Origin: a virus | Lineage: Duplodnaviria > Heunggongvirae > Uroviricota > Caudoviricetes | Strand: one strand, 5' to 3' | DNA length: 43,359 nucleotides | Virus record (IMG/VR): IMGVR_UViG_2541047745_000011 | Span: 1 to 43,359 of that record | Part shown: positions 1,295 to 34,215 of the stretch, piece after piece | How positions within the stretch are numbered: the stretch's first letter is position 1 | Layout of the letters: each line of letters starts with the position of its first letter | The notes under the pieces: generated by a model | Told to the model about the DNA's origin: nothing | The model's database searches: none | What the model saw: the letters and a program-made list of their open reading frames with translations, nothing else | Program-made: the position numbers and the translations under genes

Positions 1295-3415
1295 TCATTT
1301 CACCACCCAACCAGAATTCCAGCGACCTGATTCTTTGATGTAGAGTCTTCCATTTACGATATCTCGATACTCGCTTCCAGGTGTGGCTATTTGTACTCCT
1401 TCAGGATTTCCAGTGCCAGCAATTATACTGTAACTAACGTCTGTGGCTAAATTCCTAACAATGTTAGCAGGAGGGTAAACGTTATCTGCAACAATAATAT
1501 TTGAGCAACTTGCTGTTACATCTACAAAAAACTCATTGCTTATCGAGTTGTGATAACAGTTGTTACTAATCACACCATTTTTAGCAGATGAATCAATACC
1601 TATAACTGCGTCTCCAGCTACAGATTCAAATGAATTTGATGTCACAGTGAATCCGTGGCATTCGCAGTTAATATGGACAGCTCTTCTTCCGTTCATTGCT
1701 GTATTACCTACAATTGATATGTTTCTACTTAACAAAGTTCCTTTGTATTCGCCATCATCCTCAAATATATAGAATATCGCCTTAGCCGTATCAACTTTAT
1801 TGTTGCTTGCAATCACATTAGCAATGTAATTCCCTCTAAGGAATATCCCATTACATGAATCGACTGTGTTTCCAGTGATGGAAACTCCGTCAACCCATCT
1901 CATATCAAGAATGGAGCCATCACAGGACTCAAAATTATTTCCTGATATCCTCCAGTCTCTGTGAAATATTCTACTACCTTCCAATCCGCTCTCAATAAAT
2001 GTTGGTGTAAGGCATGATATCACAGAATTTCCAGTGCAATTTTTAAATGTATTATGATGTATACACACATCTCTTGATGTTTCCCGAAGAGTTGTGCTTA
2101 CTTTCCTCCCGGTAAATATTATTGCTGGATTAGTGAAATTTATAAATGTGTTTGAACCAATGTCAACATTTTCCCACCTAGAAAAGCCACGAATGCCAGA
2201 ATAAGAATTACCATCAAAAGTACAATGGTGGATTTTTATATCAATAACTGGCTGCGCTCCATCTGTTGAACCGTGATTCCCTACGCCAACAGCCCATGAC
2301 GGTAGAGATTCTGACGGTCCAAAATAACAACCAGACACTTTAATGCTAGCGATATTATCATTGCTGGACAATGGTGTTTCAATCTGAATAGCATCTGAAA
2401 AACCTCTGTTACCTGCCCAATCCATAAACCCCATAAAACGGCAGTTTTCAATATTAACATTTCTCACGCGAGACAAGTCTATAGCATGCGCCCCTGAAAC
2501 ATTAAGGAATGTGCAATCCCGAAATATAATCCCATTAGTAAAAACAAATTCAAATATACTGGCTTGGTTTTTGTATATATTGCCATTGTTATTAAAAACA
2601 CCACCAAATACAGATATATTATTACCACATTCGACTTCAGATGTGTATATGCAAGCAAATGTATTTACACCTGTGTCTGAATTATCAAAAGCACGAATAA
2701 TAGTTGCACCTCGTAGATGTAAACTTGTGTTTGAGTATATCATTATTTTTTTTGTTATTTTTATAAGCCATTCACTACGAAAGGTTAAATTCAAACATCC
2801 GTTTATCTTTGCGATATTTAAAGCATTCTGTAAGGCATCGCTATCGTCGCTTACACCATCACCTGTAACCCCAAACCATGACGGTGAAACCTCATTCCCG
2901 TAAACCCTCTTCCACCTTCTACCGTTAAAACCTACAAGAATTGTTCCGTCATTATCTTCTGATGTCGTATCTGTTGGGTCAGCATAGAACACCCCATCAC
3001 CGCCATCGAACAAATTATTTCTTCCATAACAGATTATTTTGTCATTTGTGCCATTATATGAACGTATGTCTGTATAATTACCACCTCCTAAATACGATAC
3101 CCCGTCAATCTGATTTAGTTTCTGCTGAAACATGTCTGGATCATACTTCAGCACATTAGGAAAATAGAATTGCTGCGCTCCATACGCATCATATACAGCC
3201 ATAGAATGGCCTTGCACGGTTACGAATTTGGCAATCTGTCCGTTATATACCGGATATCCAGCAGCGTTAATGATGATTGGTTGCGAAACAGGGATGTGAG
3301 AACCGTCTTCGTTCTCCACATAAACCTGAATCTGGTTTTCAGGATTTACCGGGTCAGTGTCAATTTTACCGATATAAATTTTGCCATTAGCTACGGCTTT
3401 AAAAGAACGCGCCAT
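1295..3415 (-). CDS. Tailspike protein body (706 codons), P22/Sf6-type head-binding N-domain plus beta-helix receptor-binding domain; native first 18 codons separated by IS1
   Basis: N-terminus [40 protein letters not shown] matches residues ~19-60 of P22 gp9 / Sf6 tailspike; remainder is Asn/Ser/Thr-rich, beta-helix-like. Upstream of the ATG is the IS1 end, not a native RBS. Confidence 0.85.
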
Positions 3416-3432: not shown

Positions 3433-3936
3433 TTATTGATAGTGTTTTATGTTCAGATAATGCCCGATGACTTTGTCATGCAGCTCCACCGATTTTGAGA
3501 ACGACAGCGACTTCCGTCCCAGCCGTGCCAGGTGCTGCCTCAGATTCAGGTTATGCCGCTCAATTCGCTGCGTATATCGCTTGCTGATTACGTGCAGCTT
3601 TCCCTTCAGGCGGGATTCATACAGCGGCCAGCCATCCGTCATCCATATCACCACGTCAAAGGGTGACAGCAGGCTCATAAGACGCCCCAGCGTCGCCATA
3701 GTGCGTTCACCGAATACGTGCGCAACAACCGTCTTCCGGAGCCTGTCATACGCGTAAAACAGCCAGCGCTGGCGCGATTTAGCCCCGACGTATCCCCACT
3801 GTTCGTCCATTTCCGCGCAGACGATGACGTCACTGCCCGGCTGTATGCGCGAGGTTACCGACTGCGGCCTGAGTTTTTTAAATGGCGGAAAATCGTGTTG
3901 AGGCCAACGCCCATAATGCGGGCGGTTGCCCGGCAT
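3433..3936 (-). CDS. insB: IS1 transposase InsB reading frame
   Basis: Translation [25 protein letters not shown]...[12 protein letters not shown] matches IS1 InsB. Confidence 0.9.
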
Positions 3937-4130
3937 CCAACGCCATTCATGGCCATATCAATGATTTTCTGGTGCGTACCGGGTTGAGAAGCGGTGTAAG
4001 TGAACTGCAGTTGCCATGTTTTACGGCAGTGAGAGCAGAGATAGCGCTGATGTCCGGCGGTGCTTTTGCCGTTACGCACCACCCCGTCAGTAGCTGAACA
4101 GGAGGGACAGCTGATAGAAACAGAAGCCAC
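3855..4130 (-). CDS. insA: IS1 InsA
   Basis: Translation [42 protein letters not shown]... matches IS1 InsA. Confidence 0.9.
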
Positions 4131-4185
4131 TGGAGCACCTCAAAAACATCATCATACACTAAATCAGTAAGTTGGCAGCATCACC

Positions 4186-4245
4186 CGCCATAGTGAAAAG
4201 TTGCGAAGGCATACTCACTACAACATTGGCTGTAATGTCTGTCAT
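4186..4245 (-). pseudogene. Tailspike 5' fragment (native codons 1-20) cut off by IS1
   Basis: Minus-strand translation from ATG at 4245: MTDITANVVVSMPSQLFTMA, then runs into IS1 and stops after 8 IS-encoded codons; matches P22 gp9 N-terminus MTDITANVVVSNPRPIFTE. In frame with the 1295-3415 body once IS1 and one duplication copy are removed. Confidence 0.85.
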
Positions 4246-4313
4246 TTAATTTGCTCCAGATACAAGGAATCGCCGCAGCATTGCCACAGTGATGCATTAT
4301 TAATCAAACAAAG

Positions 4314-4328
4314 AGACCACTGTGGTCT
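4314..4328. promoter_or_regulatory. Perfect 15-bp palindrome AGACCAC-T-GTGGTCT, candidate Mnt operator overlapping divergent promoters
   Basis: Symmetric site midway between the mnt start (4392, +) and the native tailspike start (4245, -); P22 Mnt binds a palindromic operator in the equivalent position. Confidence 0.4.
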
Positions 4329-4391
4329 TATTGAGGATGCAACCAGCAGATAATAAGATGCCGATCCACTCACAAAAGCGAGGCATCAAGA

Positions 4392-4643
4392 ATGGGAAGA
4401 GATGACCCGCAATTTAATCTGCGGCTACCTTACGAATTAAAGGAAAAACTAAAACAGCGAGCCAAATCCAATGGCCGCTCTCTTAATTCAGAATTAGTTC
4501 AGATAGTGACTGATGCTGTATCAAAGCCATCCAAAATTTCAGGCTATCGAGACGATGCGGAACGCATCGCTGATGAGCAGTCCGAACTTGTTAAGAAGAT
4601 GGTGTTTGATACGCTGAAGGATTTGTACAAAAAACCCACCTGA
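4392..4643 (+). CDS. mnt: Mnt repressor (ribbon-helix-helix, Arc/Mnt family)
   Basis: 83 aa, MGRDDPQFNLRLPYELKEKLKQRAKSNGRSLNSELVQIV...ELVKKMVFDTLKDLYKK closely matches P22 Mnt; GAGG RBS upstream. Confidence 0.9.
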   Translation: MGRDDPQFNLRLPYELKEKLKQRAKSNGRSLNSELVQIVTDAVSKPSKISGYRDDAERIADEQSELVKKMVFDTLKDLYKKPT

Positions 4644-4660
4644 TGGTGGGTTCCATTTAT
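4635..4660. terminator. Bidirectional rho-independent terminator between convergent mnt and lipoprotein genes
   Basis: CCCACC-tgat-GGTGGG hairpin with A-run on one side and T-rich tract on the other; overlaps the mnt stop codon. Confidence 0.5.
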
Positions 4661-5079
4661 TAGTCGTGCTTTGTTGACGGTATAAGGGATGCATTTGCCT
4701 CTTTAGGCTTCAAGGTATACATCCCACCATTAAATGGATCTACAGCAAGCCAACCAATTAACCCACCAAACACAAGGTTTCCACCAATATACCAACCATT
4801 AGCATTGGCTTTGATTGGCAGGGTAACTGGTTCGTACCCATCCTTCTCCATAGTGATCTGGTAGCTCTTTTTGCCAAAATAACTACCATCTGACTTGGCA
4901 AGAGTTACTCCTTGCGGGGTCTTACCTTGCGCAACAATCACGCCTGATTCGTCTTTTACCTTAAAGCTCGCACCGGAAGGATTGCTGTTCACTTGCACAA
5001 GCTGTGTTTCGTCACCAACAATAGTTGCGCACCCAGATAACAATATAGCGCCAGCAACGACGCCGATAATCCTCTTCAT
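4660..5079 (-). CDS. Lipoprotein of unknown function (accessory gene in sieA-equivalent locus)
   Basis: 139 aa; signal peptide with lipobox LLSGC; Gly-rich C-terminal region; sits where P22 carries sieA, between gene 16 and mnt. Confidence 0.6.
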   Translation of the reverse strand: MKRIIGVVAGAILLSGCATIVGDETQLVQVNSNPSGASFKVKDESGVIVAQGKTPQGVTLAKSDGSYFGKKSYQITMEKDGYEPVTLPIKANANGWYIGGNLVFGGLIGWLAVDPFNGGMYTLKPKEANASLIPSTKHD

Positions 5080-5213
5080 ATTACTTTCCGTTTTGTTAGA
5101 ATCAGAAAGATCTTAATAATAAAAAGTATTTTCGTGAAGATATTGTCGATTGAGTTAATAACTCATTTACACCCAACAGTGCCATGATGGCAAAGATAAG
5201 GAGAGTTAATCAT

Positions 5214-5699
5214 ATGAAAAAATCACTGTTAATTATCCCGCTTCTGCTGGCAGGGTGTGCAAAGGTTAGCGACTATCAGGCAAGTTGCGAACAACGCTAT
5301 CCAAAGCTTAGCGATATGGCTAATTGCCTTGATGCTAGCGTGAAGAGCGACTCACGCATGGCATCAGCACCAACACCTAAGTTATATGTCCTTGCTGCGA
5401 AGATGCTCGGGCAAGGTGTCGATGATGGCAAGATAAGTGACGCGCAGGCAAGACTTGAGCTTCAGAATCTTTATGTTCAATTACAAAGCCAAGAACAAGC
5501 CCAACAAATAGCACAAAGCCAAGCATTCCAGCAGGCTTTATTGAATTATCAGGCTGTAAACACAATGCAAGCTATCGAGCAAAAAGCGCGCCAGCCTGTT
5601 ATAACTCAACCTTACCCAACACGCGTTGACACTTACACAAACTGCAATTCAGGGTTTGGAAATACAGTCACATGCAACAGTAGCAGTAACATCAGATAA
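5214..5699 (+). CDS. Lipoprotein of unknown function, Gln-rich (divergent from 4660-5079)
   Basis: Start chosen at ATG 5214 (MKKSLLIIPLLLAGCAK, lipobox LAGC) with AAGGAGAG RBS at 5198-5205; track ORF begins at 5184. Confidence 0.6.
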   Translation: MKKSLLIIPLLLAGCAKVSDYQASCEQRYPKLSDMANCLDASVKSDSRMASAPTPKLYVLAAKMLGQGVDDGKISDAQARLELQNLYVQLQSQEQAQQIAQSQAFQQALLNYQAVNTMQAIEQKARQPVITQPYPTRVDTYTNCNSGFGNTVTCNSSSNIR

Positions 5700-5789: not shown

Positions 5790-7787
5790 CTATTCTGACA
5801 ACGCATCAGACTTAGCCCCCTGAGTAAGGGCGTTAATGGCCTTTTGCGCCTGCTGCATGGCTTTCTCAAACGCTGTTGATCCGCGTGGGGTGTTTGCCAT
5901 TCGGAGCATTGCATTTCTGAATGGCTCGCTCTCATAGGCGCGAGTAAGAAGTCCGTAGCTTACTGCTGCGCCAGTTGTAGCCGGGTTCATTGCCGTCCCA
6001 TACCCAATTATGAACGGGATAGTTTGCTGCCCTGTGGGTGTTGTTACTGCCGCTTTTGCAGCCTGCTGCGTGGATTGCAGGTAGTTTTTTAATCCTTTCA
6101 GATAAGCAGCGTCCTGCCCCTTAAATGTGATGCCAGTCTGGTTTTGCAGGATGTTAAGCTGCCGAAGGAACTGGTCAGGGGATCCGCCAGATTTCTCCAT
6201 CGCCTTTCCAATGATGCCATTGCGCATTTGCGTCCTGCCAACACGACCAACTGAGTTATACAGAGTCTTAATTTCCGATTTGTTCTTGCTGAATAGCATG
6301 TTGTTGACAACTTCCGGCGTCAGGTCGCCTTTCATGAGAACATTCTTCAGCCTGGTATTCTTTAGTTTCGCCGCTTCGTCAGCGTAGACGGCATTGGCCT
6401 GCTGATATTTACGGAGAGTATCGTTGCCAAGATTCTGACCAATGGCACCATTGATATCGTCGGTCATTGCCTTGTAAACGCGCTGAATGGCAGCATCGGA
6501 ACGGTTTGGTAACACTGGTCGCTCACCTTTCACGTCCATTCTGAACTGGCTGCGCAGGTCGCTTAATTGCTTCAAATCCAGATTTACCGGACCATCAGGA
6601 CCAGCATTGCGAACAAGTTCATCACGATATGATTGAAGTTTTGAAATAGTCTCGTTATCAGCAACCTTACCAAGCTTCTGCAGGTTAGATATCTCAGTAT
6701 CAATCTGCTGAATTGCTCGCGCAGGCTGGATATTGACTCCCGCCATTGCATTCTGAACCTGCTCAAGACGGTTCCCTGCAGCACGACGAATTCCTGATGT
6801 TTTCGCTTTAAGGCTGTCAATAACAACAGCTGGATCATACTCCCCGAATTTATTGGCAAATCTCTGCACCAACTGGCTTCTCGCTTCCTGTTGCGTTGCT
6901 CTCATTCCGCTTGTGCCAGCCAGAGGGATATTTTCTGCTGTAGTCTGCGCCATTTTTCCGACGCGGGAAGTAGGTTGTAACAGGTCCGTGGTGTGCAGAG
7001 GAACTCCTTCACGCTCTGCAAATCTGATAGCCTGCTGCGCTTCTGGCGCAATAGCACCGCGAACGCCACGATAAGCAGCACCTAATCCACGTCCAGCAGC
7101 GTTAATAGCACCGCCAGCCAGCACACCAACGCCTAAATCGGTGGCGAGGGCTTCCGCATCATCTTTCGCACTATTTGCAGCAAGTGATCCAACTGCGTTT
7201 TCTGCGAGAAGTCGTGTTGCCCCCTGAGCAATTCGACCAGCAAGTGTTGGTGCCTGTGCCGCCGCTCTCTCAACGCCAGCAGGAGTGAGGTAAGGCAATG
7301 CTTCAGCAAATACCCTTCCCTCTGTCGTTTGTGGAGTCAGCGCGCCTTGCTGAAGGCCAAAGTCCTGCTCTAATCCCTGCGTTGTTACTCGTGGCGCTGG
7401 TTGATATGTACCATCGCCAATGCCGAGTTTACCGCCAGCCCAAGCCGCCGCGCTTGTTACAGCATCTGCAACTGATGCAGGTATGTTTGCCACGTTCACG
7501 CCAGCCTGCACCAGTCCGCGACCAGTCTCTTTCACTGCTTCACCAAGATCAGACATAAATCCACTTTGCTGTGGTTGTTGCTGTGCTACTGGTTGCTGTG
7601 TATCCACTGGCTGCACAGATGGCAATGGATAGGCAGCATAGAAAGCTTGCTTAGCCTGCTCTGCATTTTCTCCGGCTTGCGGGGCCACGACTTCATTGAA
7701 GTATTGCTCCTGAGCCTGCGCTTTTTGTTCTGGTGCTAACGCCTGATACTGTGGAGAGGCGATAACATCTTTCCATGCTTTAGCCAT
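5790..7787 (-). CDS. Ejection (injection) protein, P22 gp16-like
   Basis: 665 aa, Ala/Gln/Gly-rich; last gene of the ejection-protein block in P22 gene order 14-7-20-16. Confidence 0.7.
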   Translation of the reverse strand: MAKAWKDVIASPQYQALAPEQKAQAQEQYFNEVVAPQAGENAEQAKQAFYAAYPLPSVQPVDTQQPVAQQQPQQSGFMSDLGEAVKETGRGLVQAGVNVANIPASVADAVTSAAAWAGGKLGIGDGTYQPAPRVTTQGLEQDFGLQQGALTPQTTEGRVFAEALPYLTPAGVERAAAQAPTLAGRIAQGATRLLAENAVGSLAANSAKDDAEALATDLGVGVLAGGAINAAGRGLGAAYRGVRGAIAPEAQQAIRFAEREGVPLHTTDLLQPTSRVGKMAQTTAENIPLAGTSGMRATQQEARSQLVQRFANKFGEYDPAVVIDSLKAKTSGIRRAAGNRLEQVQNAMAGVNIQPARAIQQIDTEISNLQKLGKVADNETISKLQSYRDELVRNAGPDGPVNLDLKQLSDLRSQFRMDVKGERPVLPNRSDAAIQRVYKAMTDDINGAIGQNLGNDTLRKYQQANAVYADEAAKLKNTRLKNVLMKGDLTPEVVNNMLFSKNKSEIKTLYNSVGRVGRTQMRNGIIGKAMEKSGGSPDQFLRQLNILQNQTGITFKGQDAAYLKGLKNYLQSTQQAAKAAVTTPTGQQTIPFIIGYGTAMNPATTGAAVSYGLLTRAYESEPFRNAMLRMANTPRGSTAFEKAMQQAQKAINALTQGAKSDALSE

Positions 7788-9181
7788 TAATCACCCCATA
7801 GTGAAGAAAAGTTACTGCTGGCTGCTGGCTGTGATACCTGTGCAGGTTGAGATTGCTGCCGCTGAGATTTACCAACATTAACGTTATATTGTTGGTTGTA
7901 ATTGTTGGTGTATTCCTGAATCTCACGAATCGACTGCTGCATAGCCTCCGGGCTTGAATAGTCAACCTGCGGCATCCCCTGAAAATACATCTTCGCTTCT
8001 GCAACGGTGTTAATACCACTGGCCCCCATGTCCCTTGCTGCCGCCACACCCTGATTCTGCATTCTGCCCTGAATACGTTGTGCTGAGTTATATAACTGGC
8101 GCTGCTCTTTTCCTGTTAATCGGCTGCGAACATCAGCACCAATTGCCGGGTTACCTGCGCCGCCGGTCATTCCTGTCATGAAATCGAGAGCAGAAGCGTC
8201 TGCATTTGCGATCGCGTCGATATCCTTCTTCATGGCATAGTTTTGTGCTGATGCAGACGATGTTGCAGGCGCTGCGATTGAACTGGCAGGAACGCGAACC
8301 ATATTCCCCTCGTTGTCGATGCCTTCGTAGAACGCATTTGCCCCAGCGCCGTGAAGTTTCCCGCCAACCGTTACAGTTCTGCCATCTGATAACTGAACTG
8401 TACGCTCATCATTCCCAGCGGTTCCTCTTGTTGACGCTCGCTGCATTGCCAAATCCTGCCCGCGTCGCGCAGTAGAAGCAGATAAATCCTGACCGCGCAT
8501 CGTGATGTTCTGACCTCGTGCTGTTAGCGCCTCGCCAGCCTGATTGCTGCGGATTGTCTCTGCAAGTTTTCCGCGATCAATCTCACGCCCAACGATTCTG
8601 TCTTGCGCCTGAAAATATTGTTCTGGACCAAGTGCAGCCATTCCAAGGTGATCAACAAACTCTGTGAAACCTTGTGGATTTTGCTGATACATTTTCGCCA
8701 CATCCAGAGGGTCTACTCCGGCACGAGTAAGCTCAGATGAGTTGTTCTGCAACCATGACATCATGGCTTCTGGAGATGAAGCTGCCAGTCTGGCACTTGC
8801 TGCCAGTGTGCCGACAGTGGAACGCTGGTCTTCATCGACAAATTTCATGCCGTTTCTTACAGCGTCAAACTGCTCAGGATACTGTGATGCCAGTTTTCGC
8901 ATTGCATCGCGGTCACCAGATGTATATGCATCAGCATAAGCCTGCTGAAACTCTTGCTGTCGCTTCTGCTGATCCATCTGCTTATACATATCCATGACAG
9001 ATGAAATGCCCTGCAAAGCCTGCAAGCCAACGTTATTACGTCCTGAACGCTCCATCTCGTTATTCTGTCGAATGTATGCAAGCGTGGCGTCTGCATCACT
9101 TGCTCTTGGAGCGTTGGAGTTCATGCCGCCTAACCCGGCAAGAAGCGCGCCTGAATTACCAGCCTGTTGCCATGTAGCCAA
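7787..9181 (-). CDS. Ejection protein, P22 gp20-like
   Basis: 464 aa; position and size match P22 gp20 (471 aa). Confidence 0.65.
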
Positions 9182-31880: not shown

Positions 31881-31934
31881 TTACCTGCAGGTAAAAAACA
31901 AATCAATACCCACAGGTTATTTACCGATAGGTAA
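31881..31934. promoter_or_regulatory. OR operator region: palindromes TTACCTGCAGGTAA and TTACCGATAGGTAA between cro-like and cI genes
   Basis: Perfect 14-bp palindrome at 31881-31894 and related site at 31921-31934 in the 108-bp divergent intergenic region. Confidence 0.6.
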
Positions 31935-31953
31935 TCAAAGATAGAATTAAATC

Positions 31954-32640
31954 ATGGATAAATACGAACAAAGACGACTAAGGCTGATAGAGATAAGAGA
32001 CCGATTCTGTAATGGAAAGGCCTCAGAGTTGGCTCGTCGAATAGAAAGGGAACCATCATACGTTTCCAGAATGCTGTATCCGGAAGGAAAAAGCGGAAAA
32101 AAACGCATTGCTGACGATATGATGGAACTAATTGAAAAATCTTTTAATCTCCCACGCGGATGGATGGACATGCTTGCAGATAGCAAAGTTGGATCTGCAG
32201 ACCATCTTGAGTTTGCGGGTAACGTTCGTGCGGGTTTTGTTCCGGTAATTGGTGAAGCCGTTTTGGGAGTTGATGGCTCAGTGGATATGATTGAATTCAG
32301 ATCCGGTTGGTTAAGCATCTACAGTGGCGATAAAGATGCTTACGGTCTGAAGGTTAAGGGTGACAGCATGTGGCCAAGGATTCAGTCAGGAGAATATGTT
32401 GTTATTGAACCAAATACGCCAGTACATCCAGGTGATGAAGTCTTTGTAAGGACCAAAGATGGTCATAACATGATAAAGATCATGAACAAAACAAGAGACG
32501 GAGACTATCAGTTTAGTAGTATAAACAGCGATCACCGTCCAATCACTCTTCCTGTTGAAGAAGTTGATAAAATGCATTTTGTTTCAGCTATTGTGAAACA
32601 CACTAGGTACGTAGACCAGGACGATCTGCCAAAATTTTGA
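31954..32640 (+). CDS. CI-type prophage repressor (N-terminal HTH, C-terminal LexA/S24-like autocleavage domain)
   Basis: 228 aa; C-terminal domain with GDSM (Ser nucleophile) and downstream Lys; divergent from cro-like gene. Confidence 0.85.
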   Translation: MDKYEQRRLRLIEIRDRFCNGKASELARRIEREPSYVSRMLYPEGKSGKKRIADDMMELIEKSFNLPRGWMDMLADSKVGSADHLEFAGNVRAGFVPVIGEAVLGVDGSVDMIEFRSGWLSIYSGDKDAYGLKVKGDSMWPRIQSGEYVVIEPNTPVHPGDEVFVRTKDGHNMIKIMNKTRDGDYQFSSINSDHRPITLPVEEVDKMHFVSAIVKHTRYVDQDDLPKF

Positions 32641-32951
32641 GGATAAAGCAGCAAATGTTTATACCAGGTATAGTGGTCGCTGTTGTAATCATCTGCTTCA
32701 TATGGGCAAAGTTATCTCCTGTAAGCTCTAAGCATACAGCTGAACTCATGAAGAAGAAGCATCTTATACATGAGGCAGAAACGATAATTAAGAAGTTCAA
32801 AGGCATGTCATATGACGACATGTCATCAGATCAGATTGCTATGTATAAATGCGCCATTGAGCGTCTTGACTACTTAAACGGACTCAAACCCAAACACACC
32901 CCGGTAGAATCAAAATTGCCGCAATGGCCAAGCAATCCAAATAGCTTCTGA
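32637..32951 (+). CDS. Membrane protein of unknown function, translationally coupled to cI (rex/sieB-equivalent position)
   Basis: Start overlaps cI stop (ATGA); N-terminal hydrophobic helix IPGIVVAVVIICFIWA; followed by a strong terminator. Confidence 0.5.
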   Translation: MRIKQQMFIPGIVVAVVIICFIWAKLSPVSSKHTAELMKKKHLIHEAETIIKKFKGMSYDDMSSDQIAMYKCAIERLDYLNGLKPKHTPVESKLPQWPSNPNSF

Positions 32952-32962
32952 CATCTCCTTTC

Positions 32963-32986
32963 AGCCCGCAAAGCGGGCTTTTTTAT
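32963..32986 (+). terminator. Rho-independent terminator ending the cI operon
   Basis: AGCCCGC-AAA-GCGGGCT followed by TTTTTTA. Confidence 0.7.
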
Positions 32987-33004
32987 ATCAATCCAAAAAA
33001 TTAA

Positions 33005-33087
33005 TTACCTGAAAATTCAAACAGGTAAACTCTCACACTAATTTTATTTACCTGCAGGTATAGACAACAGTTTTACCTGTAGGTATA
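33005..33087. promoter_or_regulatory. OL operator / PL promoter region with TTACCTGCAGGTAT and TTACCTGTAGGTAT sites
   Basis: Same half-sites as OR (33048-33061 and 33074-33087) plus split site TACCTG-N10-CAGGTA at 33005-33026; upstream of nutL and N. Confidence 0.55.
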
Positions 33088-33128
33088 TTTTAAGCCATCA
33101 GCAGGACGCACTAACCACCATGAAGGTG

Positions 33129-33317: not shown

Positions 33318-34215
<898 letters not shown>

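Follow-up and report, generated by a model that had tools for sequence, protein, structure and literature searches.

A small membrane-protein family behind cI and beside gene 16: candidate superinfection-exclusion genes of P22-like prophages

Introduction

The IMG/VR record IMGVR_UViG_2541047745_000011, analyzed here over its full 43,359 nucleotides and called the window below, is a lambdoid prophage whose virion genes are P22-like and whose immunity region is of the mEp043 type. Directly 3' of its S24-type cI repressor gene lies an open reading frame (ORF; 32637–32951, + strand) for a small membrane protein, which we read as a protein of 98 residues belonging to the family PHROG 10450. We tentatively propose, as the first-ranked of several readings, that this protein is a lysogen-expressed, single-gene superinfection-exclusion factor at the inner membrane. 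What is new is an uncharacterized family within a well-known kind of gene, the accessory or exclusion gene of a prophage lysogeny module.

That anti-phage functions can be encoded by genes co-transcribed with prophage repressors is proven (Rex, Stk, and Hex), and a moron behind cI will not in itself surprise specialists; interest is added by the link to the sieA slot, by the cassette-like divergence of the gene, and by a prophage with two paralogs, all described below. According to Leavitt et al. (2024; PMC10883804), sieA is present in just 22 of the 66 P22-like phages that have been sequenced, and nothing that we checked describes what fills the slot in the two thirds that lack it. PHROG 10450 links that slot to the one in the cI operon. 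The gene is small enough for easy genetics and has been missed by RefSeq in most genomes. Should its product block genome entry, the passage of podovirus ejection proteins through the inner membrane could be studied with a minimal probe of one helix; otherwise, the gene adds to the uncharacterized morons.

Results

The gene behind cI belongs to a constrained family

The 98-residue protein matched PHROG 10450, a family annotated as being of unknown function, over its full length (E = 1e-55, 187 bits, residues 1–98 on profile positions 1–98 of 98), and distant homologs matched the same profile at E-values of 1e-24 to 1e-51. An exhaustive HMMER (phmmer) search returned ten proteins at E ≤ 1e-3, eight of which are family members with 31–97% identity; homologs at 30–45% identity were found with E-values down to 4e-17. 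A profile search retrieved 21 cluster representatives from E. coli, E. fergusonii, Salmonella, and Cronobacter, and the narrower family alignment found a single locus among GTDB species-representative genomes. By contrast with the PHROG result, searches of Pfam, NCBIfam, PADLOC, and PDB sequences with the protein gave nothing above noise. A Pfam scan at E ≤ 1 produced only TTC3 and Chromo_MIT1, both at chance level and far below cut-offs, with no match to a SieB or T4 Imm model, and PADLOC-DB v2 (5027 models) yielded no family, whether searched with the window protein or with two distant homologs. An earlier note on this DNA, made from the sequence alone, had assigned the protein to no family that it recognized, which is right for Pfam, NCBIfam, PADLOC, and the PDB and wrong for PHROG, where the family exists without a function. 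Two further, weak PHROG matches (phrog_1077, 'transcriptional regulator', E = 0.003; phrog_10423, E = 0.02) were set aside. Literature searches covering mEp043, other mEp phages, and repressor-adjacent membrane proteins found no functional work on the gene.

Several observations show that the ORF is a real gene under constraint. All 35 close copies (the window, six GenBank or RefSeq loci, 28 IMG/VR loci, and one GTDB locus) were intact, and across their 14 DNA alleles the ratio of nonsynonymous to synonymous polymorphism (pN/pS) was 0.21, compared to 0.11 for the adjoining cI. Among 5426 complete E. coli genomes, the ORF and cI were each found in 52, always as a single copy, and lay next to each other in every record in which both were listed. 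The module is also shared between phages of different virion type, as the immunity region of mEp043, itself a lambda-like siphovirus, is 96.8% identical in nucleotide sequence to that of the P22-like window (over 31900–33100). Among the matches listed for 32641–32990, 29 of 30 RefSeq genomes have no feature over the gene. In the remaining one, from a strain with a GTG start allele, a protein of 67 residues is called from an internal ATG. RefSeq systematically under-annotates the gene; the mEp043 copy (gp49) is annotated as a hypothetical protein.

The start codon lies past the cI stop

Called mechanically, the ORF starts at a TTG. The earlier note had read an ATGA overlap between the cI stop codon and the start of the gene, and translational coupling to the repressor. 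There is no such overlap: positions 32634–32642 read ATTTTGAGG, and the cI stop (TGA, 32638–32640) is overlapped only by the TTG. Four lines of evidence indicate that the true start is the ATG at 32655, 14 nucleotides past the cI stop. First, the PHROG 10450 profile has 98 positions and is matched end to end from this ATG. Second, homologs in which the N-terminus is present and bears no gene-caller extension open with M/V-[FYW]-I-[PS], aligned to the methionine at 32655. Third, an upstream extension is impossible in related cI-linked lineages: L012 and L046 have an in-frame TGA immediately 5' of the ATG, and the GTG start of L047 lies only 5 nucleotides past the cI stop. Finally, a GAGGA Shine-Dalgarno sequence that overlaps the cI stop (32639–32643) is found 11 nucleotides upstream of ATG 32655, whereas the TTG has no Shine-Dalgarno sequence. 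The six residues that the TTG would add (MRIKQQ) are not conserved.

The sequence around the cI stop reads AAAATTTTGAGGATAAAGCAGCAAATGTTT, and the junction that holds the Shine-Dalgarno sequence is identical in the 29 IMG/VR and GTDB copies analyzed. The start codon is GTG instead of ATG in mEp043 and in 6 of 29 IMG/VR copies, an allele that probably led annotators to pick other starts. Coupling through an overlap is not a feature of the family, as the gaps from cI stop to start are 14, 39, and 5 nucleotides in three lineages. This close spacing is nevertheless kept across all three cI-linked lineages, and translational coupling by proximity to cI is possible.

Position between cI and a terminator

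Read along the + strand, the immunity region has the order cII (–), cro (–), OR operators, cI (+), the ORF (+), a terminator, OL operators with a PL-like promoter, and N (+). The succession from cro to N bears out the proposal that the gene occupies the slot equivalent to that of rexAB. The operator pattern TACCnnnnGGTA occurs 16 times in the window, compared to 6.5 expected, with clusters at OR and OL.

The strong terminator that the earlier note had placed after the ORF is indeed there. Its hairpin has a 7-bp stem with six G-C pairs, is followed by a run of six T residues, and has a predicted folding free energy of –12.6 kcal/mol (z = –3.4; none of 200 shuffled sequences folded as well), and it is identical in all 29 related copies checked. 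In a consensus scan, nothing promoter-like appeared in the interval from the cI stop to the ORF start, and the only other + strand match of the scan (32263–32291) falls within cI. Because no such site intervenes and a terminator follows, PRM and PRE appear to be the only evident route of transcription, and the 98-residue protein should be made in the lysogen alongside cI. Just 7 nucleotides separate the end of the PRM-like –10 hexamer from the cI ATG, a spacing which implies that the cI maintenance mRNA is leaderless, as in lambda. As the downstream gene has a normal Shine-Dalgarno sequence, the two proteins need not be equal in amount.

Relatives of the gene occupy two slots

Relatives of the gene were found in two genomic contexts, behind cI and convergent with gene 16. 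The gene is kept in three cI-linked lineages. In the two besides that of the window, from lambdoid prophages of E. coli and Cronobacter, a homolog of 97–98 residues immediately follows a cI with ~83% identity to that of the window. In the comparison of the window with L012, cI and cro are each 83% identical, whereas the 98-residue protein is only 42% identical. Nucleotide similarity to related immunity regions (L012 and L047) extends across cro and cI, is lost at 32631, and returns from 32995 on, in the OL region. Because similarity breaks off at the end of cI and returns at OL, the ORF and its terminator look like a discrete, highly diverged, and replaceable cassette between conserved flanks.

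A second clade, which includes the homologs in phages N7 and HZ41, occurs in P22-like prophages beside gene 16. The paralog was convergent with gene 16 and ended ~20 nucleotides from it at 25 of 25 IMG/VR loci and at six more (L007, L009–L011, L015, and L016), for a total of 31. P22 itself has sieA at this position, between gene 16 and gene 9. A tblastn search of the paralog loci with P22 SieA and a regular-expression search for the SieA motif found no SieA at any of them. Upstream, the loci are of two types. Often the paralog is the last gene of the mnt operon, which in the N7 type consists of mnt, a zinc-ribbon ORF, a coiled-coil membrane ORF, and then the paralog; in the other type, the paralog stands alone after the tailspike gene with an AAGGAGG-GTG start of its own. 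Because the repressor of phage N7 is of the P22 c2 type and is followed by no gene, the family is not bound to a single kind of repressor. All family members whose context was examined lie in or beside phage genes.

Both contexts meet in one 38-kb P22-like prophage contig (IMGVR_UViG_2563366933_000009; paralog loci L026 and L074), which carries a cI-linked copy 97% identical to the window protein and a gene-16-convergent copy 98% identical to the N7 protein. This co-occurrence suggests that the two paralogs are not redundant and is compatible with distinct specificities.

The two ORFs that precede the paralog in N7-type mnt operons (L011 3580–4420, corresponding to N7 ORF16 and ORF15; L009 2196–2886; L015 1530–2367) encode a small, Cys-rich, zinc-ribbon-like protein and a coiled-coil protein with one transmembrane helix and weak XhlA- or SlyX-like matches. 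They were ruled out as conserved partners, as they are missing from many paralog loci, and their PADLOC matches were coiled-coil noise. The most divergent homolog (P0008, 114 residues; L008 4001–5747) lies between genes similar to P22 gp7 and gp20 and an Hcp–Tlde1 pair of a type VI secretion system, possibly at a prophage edge.

The protein is predicted to face the cytoplasm

The protein (98 residues, isoelectric point 9.1) has one strongly hydrophobic segment, MFIPGIVVAVVIICFIW, at residues 1–17 (Kyte-Doolittle mean 2.84 over 17 residues), in agreement with the earlier description of a single-pass membrane protein. Across the family, 0–2 uncharged residues precede the helix at the conserved start; the next 15 residues past the helix contain 1–4 Lys or Arg, and more basic residues cluster farther on. 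From hydropathy and flank charge, by the positive-inside rule, and because there is no basic n-region, we predict a topology with the N-terminus outside and the C-terminus inside.

AlphaFold2, run with a 16-sequence alignment, gave a model with a mean predicted local distance difference test score of 81, in which a helix at residues 5–47 leaves the membrane, a second helix at residues 58–76 packs back against it, and an extended tail follows. Met56, Cys66, Ala67, Leu71, Trp91, and Pro92 are invariant in the family, and Ile38, Glu40, Ala41, Arg70, and Leu74 are nearly so; the family motifs are Y-x-C-A-x-E-R-L and W-P, the latter being the invariant Trp-Pro at which the Pro-rich tail ends. Structure searches with the model found only generic helical hairpins.

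Discussion

A model for exclusion and its precedents

In the model that we tentatively favor, transcription from PRM or PRE would pass through cI and the 98-residue protein gene to the terminator, and the protein would be made in the lysogen with cI. Anchored by a single N-terminal helix with 1–2 residues outside, it would expose a helical hairpin and its Pro-rich tail to the cytoplasm and would act alone, from the inner membrane or its cytoplasmic face, against genome delivery by incoming phages. The target would most plausibly be the P22-like ejection-protein conduit or a host inner-membrane factor that this conduit needs. We speculate that the cytoplasmic side of the protein might engage the gp16/gp20 conduit where its end is embedded in the membrane, or else YajC, discussed as a host factor by Leavitt et al. 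(PMC10883804). The protein would then be a functional analog, and not a homolog, of P22 SieA and HK97 gp15. We rank exclusion first because, in phages that lack sieA, its slot is occupied by a paralog, because proven exclusion proteins of such size and plan exist (HK97 gp15, 62 residues), and because the conserved motif of SieA is itself predicted to be cytoplasmic, a precedent for action from that side. By analogy with lambda and P22, where the slot behind cI and the slot beside gene 16 are known as prophage-expressed, both positions would be active in the lysogen, and the positional argument is strengthened by the second, independent slot.

Like SieA, the protein would be made by the prophage, reside in the inner membrane, and need one gene only; its paralog clade holds the exact position of sieA, convergent with gene 16 and sharing its strand with mnt; and most of the 98-residue protein is predicted to lie on the cytoplasmic side, where the best-conserved motif of SieA is also placed by prediction (Leavitt et al., 2024; PMC10883804). 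Unlike it, SieA has 162–164 residues and three predicted transmembrane helices (four in types B and C; PMC10883804), compared to 98 residues and one helix, and its motif is FxRYPxEAxxFNK in place of the two family motifs given above. We rejected homology to SieA, as hhalign gave a probability of 0.7% that was confined to the transmembrane segment, the SieA motif is absent, and length and helix number differ.

HK97 gp15, which the summary of Cumby et al. (2012) in PMC3594210 presents as a proven, moron-encoded, YebO-like exclusion protein of the inner membrane, is closer in plan. It too is small, made by the prophage, and located in the inner membrane: an N-terminal transmembrane helix leads through a basic flank into a C-terminal part that is helical, and a single gene, closed by a terminator of its own, encodes it. 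It differs in length (62 residues) and in lying in the tail operon instead of the immunity region, and it has chromosomal YebO relatives, whereas the PHROG 10450 members examined are phage-associated. Homology to gp15 or YebO was rejected as well (hhalign probability 1%, transmembrane segment only).

The slot itself is that of lambda rexA and rexB: distal to cI, transcribed from PRM and PRE, and closed by a terminator before OL and PL. RexB is also an inner-membrane protein, with four transmembrane helices. Rex is, however, a two-protein system, whereas a single 98-residue, one-helix gene stands between cI and the terminator here, and neither of the Rex proteins was matched through Pfam or PADLOC. 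Small, membrane-anchored proteins of the lactococcal Sie2009 type are encoded beside the repressor in the lysogeny module and block DNA injection; they have about 160–170 residues and a Gram-positive host. They are not known to be related to PHROG 10450. The 434 hex gene is likewise transcribed from PRM and lies right behind the repressor gene or overlaps it; its product is named for heterologous exclusion of P22, blocks RecA-stimulated cleavage of particular repressors, and affects spontaneous induction (PMC3564112). As described, Hex is set apart by an ORF of 158 residues and by the lack of any mention of membrane association, and PHROG 10450 also occurs away from repressors of this type (in N7).

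The copy in the window is itself behind cI and not beside gene 16, where the paralog clade holds the SieA position; the charge bias from which the topology was predicted is weak in one clade; and the computations made here cannot separate exclusion from abortive infection or from a role in lysogeny or host physiology. Broader, and more doubtful than exclusion by the window protein taken singly, is the proposal that PHROG 10450 is an unrecognized family of one-helix, cytoplasm-facing exclusion proteins that replaced SieA in some P22-like phages, was recruited independently into cI operons, and consists of fast-diverging paralogs with different target ranges, which would block the ejection conduit or a host factor such as YajC from the inner face of the membrane. 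Different target ranges would explain the presence of two paralogs in one prophage.

Other readings of the gene

Two other functions rank equal second, and we consider each of them unlikely, if not strikingly so. One is that the protein is an abortive-infection effector, inert in the lysogen, which would sense an infecting phage, oligomerize through its hairpin, and depolarize or permeabilize the inner membrane, killing or arresting the cell before phage release as a one-protein counterpart of RexA/RexB. An operon position the same as that of rexAB, a single transmembrane helix joined to an amphipathic-looking helical hairpin that could oligomerize, a rapid, cassette-like divergence typical of defense genes, and the prophage with two paralogs are all in keeping with this function. 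A single helix of ~17 residues would nonetheless be a minimal pore former, and the protein resembles neither RexB nor any abortive-infection model in PADLOC. Nor is there a sensor partner, as the gene is alone behind cI and the upstream neighbors of its paralog vary in P22-like phages, while constitutive expression beside cI argues for a harmless resting state and there is no sign of a trigger. The other is an accessory role in lysogeny or host physiology, such as a Hex-like block of RecA-stimulated repressor cleavage, modulation of FtsH/HflKC (compare lambda cIII and RexB), or an envelope change useful to the host. Genes co-transcribed with cI do include hex, with its effect on spontaneous induction (PMC3564112); a helical domain predicted to face the cytoplasm on a membrane anchor is placed where FtsH acts; and the anatomy of the region suggests transcription from PRE while lysogeny is established. 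A repressor-specific role is made unlikely, however, by the paralogs that lie next to gene 16 in phages whose repressor is unrelated (the c2 type of N7), the contrast between 42% identity for the protein and 83% for cI and cro is unlike what a partner co-adapted to cI would show, and one would not expect a moron of benefit to the host to keep so strictly to two lysogeny slots that are specific to phages.

The comparative data largely exclude two further readings. It is very improbable that the protein is secreted to the periplasm, as it would be if translation began at the TTG and MRIKQQ, the hydrophobic core, and a cleavage site at IWA|K formed a Sec signal peptide, leaving a mature protein of 80 residues like Glo of Vibrio phage K139. 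The TTG start would indeed put two basic residues before the hydrophobic core, I-W-A fits the –3/–1 rule that governs signal peptidase I sites, and the single invariant Cys could form an intermolecular disulfide in the periplasm. We rejected this start and signal peptide on the homolog N-termini, the upstream stops, and the missing Shine-Dalgarno sequence: the extension cannot exist in L012, L046, or L047, the start in N7 and L071 has its own AAGGAGG, in no member does the conserved start give a basic n-region, the basic residues lying after the helix, and the IWA motif is lineage-specific. Least probable of all is a non-functional leftover ORF, kept only because it lies between the essential cI and OL. 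The gene is small, rare, and relatively AT-rich (40.7% G+C, compared to 47.3% for the window), and RefSeq passes over it in nearly every genome listed, as noted above. Against these features stand the intact state of every close copy and their low pN/pS, the good Shine-Dalgarno sequence and dedicated terminator, and the retention of length, transmembrane helix, Cys-Ala, Glu-Arg-Leu, and Trp-Pro at 30–45% identity in at least four lineages and two slots.

The prophage and its other genes

Within positions 1–25000, the window is 92.6–96.6% identical in nucleotide sequence to CUS-3, Kapi1, and related podoviruses, in matched segments that make up 35–65% of that interval. The chromosome of E. coli ECONIH4 is 100% identical to the window both at the ORF with its flanks (32641–32990) and at cI (31954–32640). 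The features discussed here are collected in Table 1.

Table 1. Positions of the gene behind cI, its surroundings, and other features of the window.
Feature	Positions	Strand	Basis or remark
Tailspike gene	1295–3415		
IS1 copy	3433–4130		insA/insB-like ORFs
mnt homolog	4392–4643		76% identical to P22 Mnt; without arc or ant
Lipoprotein ORF	4660–5079	–	lipobox LSGC
Lipoprotein ORF	5184–5699	+	lipobox LAGC
Ejection gene 16	5790–7787		
Ejection gene 20	7787–9181		
cro	31615–31845	–	
OR operator cluster, three TACCnnnnGGTA sites	31882–31893, 31907–31918, 31922–31933		pattern search
PRM-like promoter, TTTACC-16-TAGAAT	31920–31947	+	consensus scan
cI repressor gene, 228 residues, mEp043 immunity type, C-terminal Peptidase_S24 domain	31954–32640	+	PF00717, E = 1.4e-17; PHROG 4
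TTG overlapping the cI stop (TTGA)	32637–32639	+	probably not the start used; extension not conserved in homologs
GAGGA Shine-Dalgarno sequence, overlapping the cI stop, 11 nucleotides upstream of ATG 32655	32639–32643	+	read from sequence
Coding sequence of the 98-residue membrane protein (PHROG 10450), stop codon included	32655–32951	+	PHROG profile, homolog N-termini, pN/pS
Predicted transmembrane helix, residues about 2–18	32658–32708	+	hydropathy, flank charges; AlphaFold2 helix 5–47 runs on from it
Intrinsic terminator, AGCCCGC-AAA-GCGGGCT then T6	32963–32985 (hairpin 32963–32979)	+	folding
OL operators	33049–33060, 33074–33085		interleaved with the PL-like promoter; far edge of the slot
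PL-like promoter, TAGACA-17-TATATT	33061–33089	+	consensus scan
N gene, lambda-type	33318–33641	+	Pfam N36, E = 1.5e-26

The interval between gene 16 and the tailspike gene in the window (3433–5699), which corresponds to the sieA/immI slot, contains IS1, the mnt homolog, and the two lipoprotein ORFs; neither SieA nor a second copy of the PHROG 10450 family was found in it.

Another ORF of the immunity region, of 167 residues (33634–34137, – strand), lies directly after N, where lambda-type prophages carry sieB. Its product matched PHROG 1244, of unknown function (E = 4.6e-53), has a zinc-ribbon-like pattern of Cys residues at its C-terminus, and gave only a non-significant PADLOC match (PDC-M53B, E = 0.012). 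In a related prophage (L003), the slot after N is annotated as 'super-infection exclusion protein B', and the 167-residue ORF is a candidate for a second exclusion or abortive-infection gene in the immunity region.

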